From assembly GCA_041552055.1 (NCBI GenBank), contig JBFELO010000020.1, positions 1 through 47,848 on the forward strand: DNA of 47,848 nucleotides, in the 5' to 3' direction. Made by a program: the position numbers and the translations under genes. The notes below the pieces were generated by a model. It had not been told where the DNA came from, searched no databases, and saw nothing but the letters and a program-made list of their open reading frames with translations. Shown in pieces: positions 31,915-36,505 of this stretch; position 1 is the first letter of the stretch, and each line of letters begins with the position of its first letter. Origin of the DNA: Candidatus Sulfomarinibacteraceae bacterium (GTDB lineage: Bacteria > Acidobacteriota > Thermoanaerobaculia > Thermoanaerobaculales > Sulfomarinibacteraceae).

Positions 31915-31997
31915 CTCTTCGTCTTCATCTTCGTCTTCATCTTCGTCTTCATCGTTGTCGCTGTCGTCATCGTCATCGTTGTCGTCATCGTCATCGG
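31915..31997. repeat. (TCTTCGTCTTCA)x3 + (TCGTCA/TCGTTG)n hexamer array; reads (GAYGAM)x14 on the apaH coding strand, 56-140 nt upstream of the apaH start
   Basis: cttcgtcttcatcttcgtcttcatcttcgtcttcatcgttgtcgctgtcgtcatcgtcatcgttgtcgtcatcgtcatcgg. Confidence 0.5.
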
Positions 31998-31998
31998 C

Positions 31999-32330
31999 CT
32001 GCCGTTCGCGTCGACCATCTGACACCCAACGCGCCCTCTCCCCAACGCGCTCCCCGCGGTTGCCACCTTCAACAATCTTGGGCGTGAATGACGGCGATGT
32101 GGTGTGCTGAGACGATCCCAAAATTGTTGAAGATGGCACGCCCGCACGACGCGCGGTCTTCGCCCTGCCGTTCACCTCGACCACCTGACACCAGAGGCGC
32201 CCTCTCCCCGGCGTGCTCCCCGAGGGTGCCCCCTTAGACAATGTTGGGACCCGACGAACCGCCCTACCCCGCTGGCGTTGCTCCCAACATTGTCAAAGAC
32301 GGCACACCCGCACGACGCCCTGTCATCGGT
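31999..32330. repeat. Tandem duplication (2 x ~165 bp) of a structured element, each copy with an outer TGCCGT/ACGGCA stem and an inner 13-15 bp stem
   Basis: Copy 1 runs 31999-32160 and copy 2 runs 32161-32330. Inner stems are TTCAACAATCTTGGG/CCCAAAATTGTTGAA in copy 1 and AGACAATGTTGGGA/TCCCAACATTGTC in copy 2. Compensatory changes preserve pairing. Flanks are conserved and loops are divergent. Confidence 0.5.
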
Positions 32331-32459
32331 CTACTATTCGCTTCGATCAGGAGACCCCGGGCCTATGCCCGGCACGCCCGATCTACGCGCTGTCGTGCAG
32401 ATTTGGCCTCGCGCCATACTGCGGGCGTCGTACGGTCTCGAGAAGTCTCGGCTGCGGCC

Positions 32460-34370
32460 TCAGCTCGATTCGGCCTGTTTCTTTCGCATACCCGCTCGCA
32501 GAAGCCGCTGCGCGTCTATCGAACCCTCGTCGAAGAACCCCTCCGGCCAGTCGTCGAACCCACCGAAGCGGTTCGTCTCCAGTCGCCTGAACCGCGTGGC
32601 GCCCTCGCGGCGCTCGGTGGACACCAATCCGACGAGGTCCAACAACTCGTCGTGCTCGTCCTCCGCGATTCGCCGCCGCAACCTGGTGACGAGATGATCA
32701 CTGTGCGTTTCGACGATGACCTGTCGCCCGCTGTGGACACACGCCAGCAGGAAATCAGCCAAAGTCTGCTGCGTGGCTGGATGGAGGTGCAGCTCGGGTT
32801 GTTCGATGGCCAGGACCGTACCCGGCGTGGCGTGGAGCCCCATCACCAGCACCGGAACCAGCTGACTCACGCCAATGCCGACGGCAGTCATGTCCAGCGG
32901 TCGTTTCACGTCGGAGATCGAGATCCGAGGTTCGAGCCCGAGACGCGGACGGTCGATCGTCTCGATTCCAGCGGCCATACCAAAGGCATCGAGCCAGTGA
33001 TTCACGGCCGCTCGGAGCGGCATTCGTGCCGTGCCGCCGGTGGTCAATGGGCAGAGGATCTCGCGCTCCGCGTCTCTGTGGAGCACCGCGAACGCGAACT
33101 CTCCCTTGGTGCCGACGTAGCCCGGTTTGTCGGTCGGAACCGAGAGGTAGAGGACCTGTGGATCCTGACGAAGCGGACCGAGGTACACCACGCGGTCCGA
33201 GAAGAACCTCGCGACCGCGCCACCACCCAACTCGAGCAGATTCGCCGGTCCCCGACTCGGTTCGAGTTCCTCGCCCGGGAGTAGGACGGGGCCACCGGCG
33301 CCGAGGCGGCGCTCGATCGACCGAGCGAACTTGGAATCGCTCACGAGAGAGTGAAGCTGCGGCCAGTATCCGGCGTCAATCGCCTCGGACCTCGAGGAGT
33401 CGAGACTTTCCATCAGTTCGGTGGCCGCCGCGGTGCCGGTCCTGTCCAAGTCCCGTTCCGCCTCGACAACATCGACGATGAGATCAATCAGCCGATCGCA
33501 GGCAGTGGTGGCGAGGTCGTTCATCCGAACCTCTTCCTGCCTCCCCTCGCCCTTCGGCGGTTCACCGATGTGGCGCTGACGAATTCGATCCCAAGCGGTT
33601 CTCGGATTCCTTCGTCGATCCCGCAAGACCTGGCGCGCCCTGCGCACCCACTCGGCGGTCAGCACGGCGTGGAGATCCCCCTGTACGAACACGGCGACCG
33701 GTATCCCCGCACGATGACTGACTCCCACCGTGCGAAAGCTGCGACGCTGGTCGGCGGCGTCGAAGCCCGTCACACGCCCTTCCAGCCGGACGACCGGCTG
33801 GAGATGTGTGCGGCGCGGCGTCACTCCGAGGTCGAGGTGCCGTCGGGACAGCACGGCCGCCCGGTAGTCCAGTGCCTCCACCCCATTGTTCGACATCGAA
33901 TCCTGACCGCGATCGATCGAGAACCTCACGCCTCGTATCCGAGCCCTGCCCGGCAAGTTTTCTCGGCTTGTGTTCAGGAGCTCCACATCCCACTCCATGA
34001 CCGTCCGCTTCGAACCGTCCCGGTCGTTCTCCCGATCCCGTTCCGGACGGATACGACGATCCGGAGTCGAGAGTTCGAAGGTTCCTCCGAGCCCGATCCT
34101 GTCGCGTGCCGTCGCACCGGCGTGACGCAGGTCATCGAATTCCCCCAACTCGACGTACGGCCCGTTCAGGGGAAGATGCTCCTCACACGACTGCCCCTGC
34201 ATTGCTTGCACCACGAGCAGGATCGATTGCAGGAGACTGCTTTTTCCCGACGAGTTCGCGCCGACAAACACTGTCAGGGGGGACAGGTCGACCTGGGCAC
34301 ACGCGACCGACTTGAAGTTCCTGACTCGCCAGCTTCGCAGTGGTTGGACGATGCCGCCAGTTCCTTTCAT
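32460..34370 (-). CDS. SMC/ABC-type (AAA_21/AAA_15-like) ATPase with DUF3696-like C-terminal tail
   Basis: Walker A VFVGANSSGKSSLLQS near the N-terminus. ~480 aa insertion. VLAIEQPELHLHP (Walker B/D-loop) and ETHSDHL (H-loop) near the C-terminus. Tail …FGGFDDWPEGFFDEGS…. 636 aa. ATGA overlap with the upstream gene. Confidence 0.7.
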   Translation of the reverse strand: MKGTGGIVQPLRSWRVRNFKSVACAQVDLSPLTVFVGANSSGKSSLLQSILLVVQAMQGQSCEEHLPLNGPYVELGEFDDLRHAGATARDRIGLGGTFELSTPDRRIRPERDRENDRDGSKRTVMEWDVELLNTSRENLPGRARIRGVRFSIDRGQDSMSNNGVEALDYRAAVLSRRHLDLGVTPRRTHLQPVVRLEGRVTGFDAADQRRSFRTVGVSHRAGIPVAVFVQGDLHAVLTAEWVRRARQVLRDRRRNPRTAWDRIRQRHIGEPPKGEGRQEEVRMNDLATTACDRLIDLIVDVVEAERDLDRTGTAAATELMESLDSSRSEAIDAGYWPQLHSLVSDSKFARSIERRLGAGGPVLLPGEELEPSRGPANLLELGGGAVARFFSDRVVYLGPLRQDPQVLYLSVPTDKPGYVGTKGEFAFAVLHRDAEREILCPLTTGGTARMPLRAAVNHWLDAFGMAAGIETIDRPRLGLEPRISISDVKRPLDMTAVGIGVSQLVPVLVMGLHATPGTVLAIEQPELHLHPATQQTLADFLLACVHSGRQVIVETHSDHLVTRLRRRIAEDEHDELLDLVGLVSTERREGATRFRRLETNRFGGFDDWPEGFFDEGSIDAQRLLRAGMRKKQAESS

Positions 34371-35392
34371 GATCCCGCCTCCAGATTGTGCCGGATGATC
34401 AGCATCTCGGCCCCGTCGGCCATCACGGCCCGCGCCATTGCCATCGATTCACGGGACTGCCCCGTCCAGGCATCGGGCAACGTCAACAGACGTACCGTAC
34501 GCCTGCCGCGCTTCGACGCTGCGGACAGCATGCACATCAACTCACGATCCATCGCCTCCGAAGGCCGACTGCGACCAGGTTCGATCTCGAGAGGTCCCTC
34601 GTACCCGGGTGCCCGGTCAGCGAGCACCCGCTCGACCAGCGGCAGCAACGCCCGCACCCCATCGGGTCCCCACGGCCGAGGCCCGAAACCGCATGTCTCC
34701 AGGCTCGAGGAGAGCACGACCACCGGAACCGTCGCGGCCTGCGATTGGGAAACGATCTCCGCAGCAGCCAACCACCGCTCGATCCTACGGCTCTCGGGTT
34801 CTCCGGTGGCGAGATCGAGTAGAACTGGATCGACCACAGTCTCAGATCCTGCTCCGTGCCGTCCGAGGGCGGTGCGACAGTCCTCGGAAAGGGCCTCCAG
34901 CTCCCTTTGCTCCCGCTCTTTGAACAGCGACCGCTGATCGAGCCTCGCATTCTCCTCTTCGACGCGCGGCGAGTCCGCTGCGATCGTCCGTTCCGCGATG
35001 GCTCCCAGTCGGGCATCTCGCGCCAGTTCGGAACCGAGCTCCGCAACGAGTCCACCCAGCTGAACACACCACATTCGCTCCACTACACCGGCTTCCACCA
35101 TGAAATCGAAGGGAAGGCCGGAGGTCCCTGCGGGCACCACCACGTCCGCGTCGGACGCGAACTCGGTCTCGTTGGACACCAGCGCCACGTCGGCAACGCC
35201 GATCTCCGGATCGAGTCCGATGACGAGCACCATTCGCGGATCACACCGCCCAGGCAGCGTGGGGTCTGCGATCCGCAGGTCACCGATCCGCGGGAATCGC
35301 GGCCAATCGTCATCGACCTCGAGCGGGCGTCGGACGCTTTCACGGAGTCGCGCCGTGCCCAGCCACTCCGGCAACTCCTTGTCGCTCATCAC
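34367..35392 (-). CDS. hypothetical protein (341 aa), middle gene of a three-gene operon
   Basis: No recognisable motifs. Start directly abuts the stop of the upstream gene (35393). Stop overlaps the ATPase start. Confidence 0.5.
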   Translation of the reverse strand: MMSDKELPEWLGTARLRESVRRPLEVDDDWPRFPRIGDLRIADPTLPGRCDPRMVLVIGLDPEIGVADVALVSNETEFASDADVVVPAGTSGLPFDFMVEAGVVERMWCVQLGGLVAELGSELARDARLGAIAERTIAADSPRVEEENARLDQRSLFKEREQRELEALSEDCRTALGRHGAGSETVVDPVLLDLATGEPESRRIERWLAAAEIVSQSQAATVPVVVLSSSLETCGFGPRPWGPDGVRALLPLVERVLADRAPGYEGPLEIEPGRSRPSEAMDRELMCMLSAASKRGRRTVRLLTLPDAWTGQSRESMAMARAVMADGAEMLIIRHNLEAGS

Positions 35393-36505
35393 TCACCCCT
35401 TCCTGCCCTCCCAGGGTGCATCTCCCAGACTGTCGACGACCGCCACACGCATCTCCTCGGCCAAGGGCGCCAGGACGCGCTCGAGACGGCGGAACAGACG
35501 GTGCTTGTGCTTTGCCACCGTCGGCCGACTCATCCCGAGCTGGCGTCCGATCTCTCGGTCTGAGGCACCCGCGAGTTTGAGGCGCAACACCTCGCGGGCG
35601 ATCCCGGTGCAGCTCGACATGATCGAACCCGAGACCTCGGCGACGATCGCTCGCTCCTCCACACTGAGATCGTCCACCGCAGGGCGCAGATCTCCCCGTT
35701 CACCCTGCTCAAGGAAGCGTGGCAGCCAGGATGTCAACAGGAAGGACAGAATTCGGTCGAGATCGGCCACGGTGACCGCGTGCGGGAGTGCGGTGGCCAC
35801 GCCTTCCAGCAACTCCACCAGCACTTCGGTGCTGTAAACCATTGGGGCGCGCATCGTCGGGTTGGACTTGATGGTGGGGAACCCCGTCAGCGACGCGGCG
35901 ACGTCTCTCAGTGCGGCGGCTGAAGGAATACCGGACTCGACCTGCTTCCCTGCAACGGTGTAGCTCCAAGCTGGAGGGGTCGCCACCAGTCGAAACGGCG
36001 ACTCCATAACGAGGGTTTTGCAGCGCTCCAGAATGTTGTCGACGATGGTCCGCTGTCGCCGTCGCGCCAGATGGTGACGGAGCTGCCGCGCGAGTAACCT
36101 TCTGAAGTGCTGAAGATCCGCCGCAACAGCCAACGCGTAGTCGAGCTGCCCCTGTCCGATCAGGACGTCGACGCAGAAGTCCTGGACGAGATCTTCGATG
36201 CCCTCATCCCATCGCCACACCCGGCCGTACACGATCGGGTCGTACCCCCGCACGACGGAGCGCACGATCTCTCTCGCCTCACGTAACAGCAACCGGCCCA
36301 TGACCTCGGATCTGTACTCGGTGACCAGCAGGCCCAGGGCTTCCAGGCCCTGCTGACAGCCTTCAGGGTCACGGTGTCTTCTCGGCAAGGGACACCCATG
36401 ATGCCACGAACCGCTGGCCGGGCCGGCGGGCGCCTCCCGCTGTGCCGGGACCGCGGGCTCGCCACCGGTACTGTCGCCGGCTTTCACACCGAAGGCTGAT
36501 AACAT
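35393..36505 (-). CDS. sigma-70/ECF-like protein: region-2-like segment plus C-terminal region-4 HTH, with long intervening linker
   Basis: …DEGIEDLVQDFCVDVLIGQ… (region 2-like) and …LSVEERAIVAEV…SDREIGRQLGMSRPTVAKHKHRLFRRLERVL (region 4 HTH). 370 aa. Start is uncertain (alternative Met at 36301); no Shine-Dalgarno at 36505. Confidence 0.5.
   Translation of the reverse strand: MLSAFGVKAGDSTGGEPAVPAQREAPAGPASGSWHHGCPLPRRHRDPEGCQQGLEALGLLVTEYRSEVMGRLLLREAREIVRSVVRGYDPIVYGRVWRWDEGIEDLVQDFCVDVLIGQGQLDYALAVAADLQHFRRLLARQLRHHLARRRQRTIVDNILERCKTLVMESPFRLVATPPAWSYTVAGKQVESGIPSAAALRDVAASLTGFPTIKSNPTMRAPMVYSTEVLVELLEGVATALPHAVTVADLDRILSFLLTSWLPRFLEQGERGDLRPAVDDLSVEERAIVAEVSGSIMSSCTGIAREVLRLKLAGASDREIGRQLGMSRPTVAKHKHRLFRRLERVLAPLAEEMRVAVVDSLGDAPWEGRKG

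Follow-up and report, generated by a model that had tools for sequence, protein, structure and literature searches.

A conserved trio of coupled minus-strand genes, here termed g1, g2 and g3 (Table 1), encodes a sigma-like helix-turn-helix (HTH) protein, a MazF-fold putative effector and an ABC-type ATPase. It was found in the window, i.e., the whole stretch of 47,848 nucleotides analysed. The trio resembles bacterial anti-phage systems that use an ATPase to restrain a toxin, apparently as an undescribed variant of them, and we consider it probable that it is an accessory anti-phage (conflict) module whose ABC-type ATPase controls the toxin as in Menshen, HEC-03 (Hma-embedded candidate 03), PARIS and Septu.

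Gene organisation and co-conservation of the trio

The three open reading frames were found where the original prediction had placed them, and the coupling it described, a stop/start abutment and an ATGA overlap, could be read directly in the DNA. At the g1/g2 junction (AGGAAGGGG-TGA-GTG-ATG), the g1 stop codon (35393-35395) is followed by GTG at 35392 and ATG at 35389; the g2/g3 junction (GGAGGCGGGATC-ATGA-AAG) contains the overlap at 34367-34370. Both coupled junctions carry Shine-Dalgarno-like runs, and stop-start overlaps of the ATGA/GTGA type are repeated across trio loci. Translation of g2 may start at ATG 35389, yielding 340 aa. For g1, the in-frame TTG 36388 (331 aa) is more likely the true start than ATG 36505, as it matches cluster members and orthologs in an ortholog alignment.

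Table 1: Features of the g1-g2-g3 locus (positions in the window).
Feature	Position	Strand	Description
g1	35393..36505	minus	sigma70/ECF-like protein with C-terminal LuxR/sigma-4 HTH; maximal ORF 370 aa
g1 sigma-region-2-like helical block	36011..36250	minus	residues ~86-165 of the 370-aa ORF; DLVQ...GQLDY...RRLLARQLRHHLARRRQRTIVDN
g1 C-terminal HTH	35480..35596	minus	residues 304-342; Pfam GerE/HTH_28/Sigma70_r4_2
g2	34367..35392	minus	putative effector, 341 aa (or 340 aa)
g2 MazF/PemK-like domain	35033..35293	minus	residues ~34-120
g2 helical hairpin and variable C-terminal alpha/beta domain	34370..35032	minus	residues 121-180 and 181-341; secondary structure from AF2 model
g3	32460..34370	minus	NsnB-type ABC ATPase, 636 aa, DUF3696-like tail
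g3 Walker A GANSSGKS	34239..34262	minus	residues 37-44; G37, N39, S40, G42, K43 invariant
g3 hypervariable insert	33228..34073	minus	residues ~100-381; skipped by NsnB profile (345 positions)
g3 Walker B region VLAIEQPELHLHP	32778..32816	minus	residues 519-531; E523, Q524, P525, E526 invariant
g3 H-loop ETHSDHL	32691..32711	minus	residues 554-560; E554, T555, H556, S557 invariant
g3 DUF3696-like C-terminal tail FGGFDDWPEGFFDEG...	32502..32606	minus	residues 589-623; W608, P609, F612, D614 invariant

The three genes are real and not chance open reading frames: each has many homologs (297 for g3; 420 representative clusters in the g2 family), and their arrangement is conserved. The trio was detected in the same gene order in 21 distinct loci (6 metagenomic, 15 species-representative) of Acidobacteriota and Actinomycetota, Mycobacterium included; the 15 came from the 80 best-matching species-representative loci. 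None of the loci examined for co-occurrence contained g1 alone or g2 alone; in one metagenomic protein (P0003, 575 aa), g1 and g2 appear to be fused. The ATPases of the trio form a single exclusive clade (21/21), and the three proteins show correlated pairwise distances (r = 0.92-0.94). The genes are thus kept together across genomes, which bears out the prediction of a self-contained module around an AAA_15/DUF3696 ABC-type ATPase. The distribution of the trio is patchy, with flanks varying from locus to locus. A supposed stand-alone g1-g2 pair on M. intracellulare plasmids was rejected, as it consists of a truncated g2 remnant and an upstream protein unrelated to g1.

Domain composition of the three proteins

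By its sequence, g3 is clearly an ATPase of the Menshen NsnB/HEC-03 type. PADLOC scores were 232.5 bits for NsnB, 164 for HEC-03B and 141 for PDC-M55A, and Pfam assigned AAA_15 (93.5 bits) and AAA_21 (69.4 bits). DUF3696 (PF12476), annotated in many homologs, reached 19.9 bits in g3, just below the 22-bit cut-off. The motifs predicted for g3 (Walker A, VLAIEQPELHLHP, ETHSDHL and the tail FGGFDDWPEGFFDEG) could all be confirmed and do not vary within the family, and a GxG-type signature was found as well. The Walker B motif shows EQ where DE is canonical, with which g3 may hydrolyse little or no ATP. An insertion of ~480 aa had been proposed, a figure that is correct as the distance between Walker A and Walker B, whereas the extra insert relative to NsnB comprises ~280 aa. 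This insert shows 20% mean identity and 22% gaps, compared to 47-50% identity in the ATPase core, and is a candidate sensing or oligomerisation region.

The middle protein had been described as lacking any recognisable motif. This is true for Pfam, where the PemK_toxin model also failed to detect g2, and for PADLOC and NCBIfam, but not at the profile and structure level, where a MazF fold is visible (AF2 model of g2: pLDDT 90.6, pTM 0.87). The claim that the operon contains no nuclease partner was therefore incorrect, since g2 carries a MazF-fold endoribonuclease-like domain, which by analogy may cleave RNA. The equivalent of the MazF catalytic Arg is retained in 103 out of 118 g2-family sequences. 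The Ser/Thr position of MazF is only 71% conserved and the family invariants D83 and Q111 differ from canonical MazF; the RNase activity of g2 is therefore only putative. A metabolic enzyme, the identity that would have spoken against the prediction, does not apply to g2. Structure searches yielded no convincing match for the helical hairpin and C-terminal domain, the latter showing 21% mean identity and 26% gaps; judged from the model, they are a candidate ATPase-docking (inPIN-like) or autoinhibitory part. The variability of the g3 insert and the g2 C-terminal domain, far above that of the catalytic cores, represents an arms-race signature.

Profile matches place g1 among the sigma70/ECF-like proteins, as a divergent member with a LuxR/sigma-4 HTH, consistent with the predicted combination of a region-2-like block and a region-4 HTH. 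The region-2-like block is its best-conserved part (45% mean pairwise identity). Against TIGR02937 (sigma70-ECF), g1 of the window scored 30 bits from residue 86 onwards, below the cut-off of 42.9, and Pfam Sigma70_r2 was not detected; 17 of 22 g1 orthologs match TIGR02937, the best with 1e-10. The HTH matches Pfam GerE (27.3 bits), Sigma70_r4_2 below threshold, and FixJ/LuxR/sigma-4 domains in PDB profiles. Pfam, NCBIfam and PDB profile searches revealed no MazE/AbrB/RHH-type domain in g1.

Apart from the HTH matches of g1, neither g1 nor g2 matches a PADLOC, Pfam or NCBIfam family, and a literature search found no paper describing the g1-g2-g3 trio. To that extent the original statement that no described system matches is right; however, the ATPase can clearly be placed as NsnB/HEC-03 type, and the system is therefore a variant within a known class rather than an unmatched one.

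Genomic context, proposed mechanism and alternatives

Immediately downstream of the trio, 8 of the 21 loci carry a type I restriction-modification (R-M) operon, compared to 1 of 65 related-ATPase loci, a context which supports the trio as the predicted defence candidate. Other trio loci have toxin-antitoxin (TA) clusters, an rve fragment or a RepSA gene nearby. The R-M-linked loci are concentrated in few actinobacterial lineages, so perhaps three independent events occurred and not eight, which weakens this contextual support.

We propose that g3, probably as an oligomer, would hold g2 via its DUF3696-like C-terminal tail and thereby suppress the MazF-like endoribonuclease domain of g2. Either the hypervariable insert of g3 or g1, as a putative DNA- or RNAP-binding protein, would detect a phage-derived signal, which would change the nucleotide state of g3 so that g2 is released or activated. 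The freed g2 would then cut RNA and halt translation, resulting in no phage yield (abortive infection or growth arrest), and the HTH of g1 may also autoregulate the operon. Several precedents are available: HEC-03, an ATPase with a PIN RNase, has been experimentally validated as a defence requiring both genes (bioRxiv 10.1101/2024.01.29.577857), Menshen is predicted to have its effector NsnC clamped by the DUF3696 tails of an NsnB dimer (PMC12065111), and type II Gabija uses a MazF-like protein whose role as defence effector has been validated (PMC13069673). Several points speak against this reading: the gene order of the trio (sensor-effector-ATPase), which is unlike that of Menshen, the Walker B variant of g3, the departures of g2 from canonical MazF, the unmatched C-terminal domain of g2 and the housekeeping surroundings described below.

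Alternatively, though this appears unlikely, the trio might be a tripartite TA or addiction module, with g1 as DNA-binding antitoxin-like repressor upstream of the toxin g2 as in mazEF and g3 modulating or chaperoning the two, and might serve to maintain genomic islands, for example the R-M cassette next to it. A translationally coupled HTH protein followed by a MazF-like protein mimics antitoxin-toxin operons, P0003 would fit as a fusion of both, R-M and mobile-element genes often accompany the trio, and HEC-03 is toxic when induced (bioRxiv 10.1101/2024.01.29.577857). Nevertheless, g1 is far larger than antitoxins and contains none of their domains looked for above, the ATPase is present wherever the g1-g2 pair is full-length, and its closest relatives belong to systems validated in phage defence (Menshen, HEC-03); moreover, TA and defence roles can coexist.

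The R-M linkage itself would suit a guard of type I R-M analogous to PrrC/RloC. The trio would then keep watch on the adjacent Hsd complex and set the RNase free once restriction is blocked by a phage anti-restriction factor. In eight loci hsdM follows g3, within ~100 bp on the same strand in seven (L008/9, L015, L017, L019, L020, L022 and L045) and at a distance of 1.4 kb in L006, and PrrC, an ABC-type ATPase-RNase, sits almost always within type I R-M loci. We nevertheless regard a guard function as improbable: 13 of the 21 loci, including the window and all acidobacterial loci, carry no R-M gene within 8 kb, and R-M is thus not an obligate partner of the trio. In addition, a few cassettes spread by horizontal transfer may account for the association.

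In the window and close relatives, the genes surrounding the trio are of the housekeeping kind (Moa/Moe, TrmO, Ni-SOD, Tag); no defence genes adjoin it, and the GC content is not unusual. These flanks, the neighbouring diguanylate cyclase and the sigma70-ECF matches of the g1 orthologs would fit a cellular regulatory operon, with g1 directing a stress regulon as an alternative sigma factor, g2 and g3 as post-transcriptional or anti-sigma-like accessories and no conflict role. Such a role is very improbable considering the sub-threshold score of g1, the patchy distribution with different flanks in every lineage and the partners, a toxin-fold protein and a defence-type ATPase. The 166-nt tandem repeat (31990-32358), which contains hairpins, and the divergent GAF-GGDEF gene adjoining the trio both exist as predicted but are not parts of the system, the repeat being strain-specific and the GGDEF neighbours not orthologous; the latter point also argues against the regulatory operon.

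Finally, the reading of g3 as a housekeeping ATPase for DNA repair or chromosome maintenance (RecF/RecN/SbcC/SMC paralog), with g1 and g2 as accessory proteins, is effectively ruled out; the original prediction had named a RecF/RecN/SbcC-type paralog as a refuting case. The N-terminal P-loop matches to SMC_N, RecF and Rad50 are weak, cover no more than ~45 residues around Walker A and fall well short of the cut-offs (RecF 24.6 vs 172 bits), the best full-length matches of g3 are defence ATPases, and the trio is non-syntenic across lineages and restricted to a minority of the best-matching species-representative loci.

Comparison with known systems

Menshen (NsnA-NsnB-NsnC; Millman et al. 2022; PMC12065111) shares with the trio the NsnB-type ATPase with AAA_15 core, GxG-type signature and DUF3696 C-terminal helix, a non-canonical Walker B (EN in NsnB, EQ in g3), frequent type I R-M linkage, and a three-gene operon with the proposed logic of nucleic-acid-binding sensor, ATPase transducer and RNase-type effector. 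In contrast to Menshen, the trio has the sigma70/LuxR-like g1 in place of a ParB-DUF262/ParBDB protein, its effector gene precedes the ATPase gene instead of following it, and g3 contains the additional hypervariable insert. Furthermore, the MazF-fold domain of g2 is N-terminal, whereas NsnC combines an N-terminal inPIN with a C-terminal BECR or other nuclease.

HEC-03 (bioRxiv 10.1101/2024.01.29.577857) likewise pairs a related ATPase with a toxin-antitoxin-type RNase fold lacking a cognate antitoxin, VapC-like PIN there and MazF-like in the trio, and is embedded in or adjoins other defence systems. It differs in having two genes, no sigma-like protein and a PIN effector, and the PADLOC models of the HEC-03 partner did not match g1 or g2. 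In PARIS (AriA-AriB) and Septu (PtuA-PtuB), too, an oligomer of an AAA_15/21 ABC ATPase keeps hold of a nuclease toxin and governs whether it is released or active, and g3 shows weak sequence matches to AriA and PtuA; their effectors are, however, TOPRIM (AriB) or HNH (PtuB) proteins, and they possess neither a DUF3696 tail nor a third, sigma-like component.

Unlike the type II toxin-antitoxin systems MazEF, PemIK and Kid-Kis, the trio has no MazE-type antitoxin, the MazF domain of g2 is fused to ~220 further residues, and the proteins encoded alongside g2 are an ABC ATPase and a sigma-like protein. Type II Gabija (GajB with MazF-like GajC; PMC13069673), an anti-phage system of several genes with an Abi phenotype, also employs a MazF-fold effector, but the partner is a UvrD-type helicase instead of an ABC ATPase and GajC has a split MazF domain; GajC and g2 are likened here by effector role, with no homology claimed. 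PrrC and RloC resemble the trio in the control of an RNase by an ABC-type ATPase and in their association with type I R-M. Their R-M linkage is near-obligate, compared to 8 of 21 loci for the trio, and in PrrC the ATPase and an anticodon nuclease domain, rather than MazF, are fused in one polypeptide.

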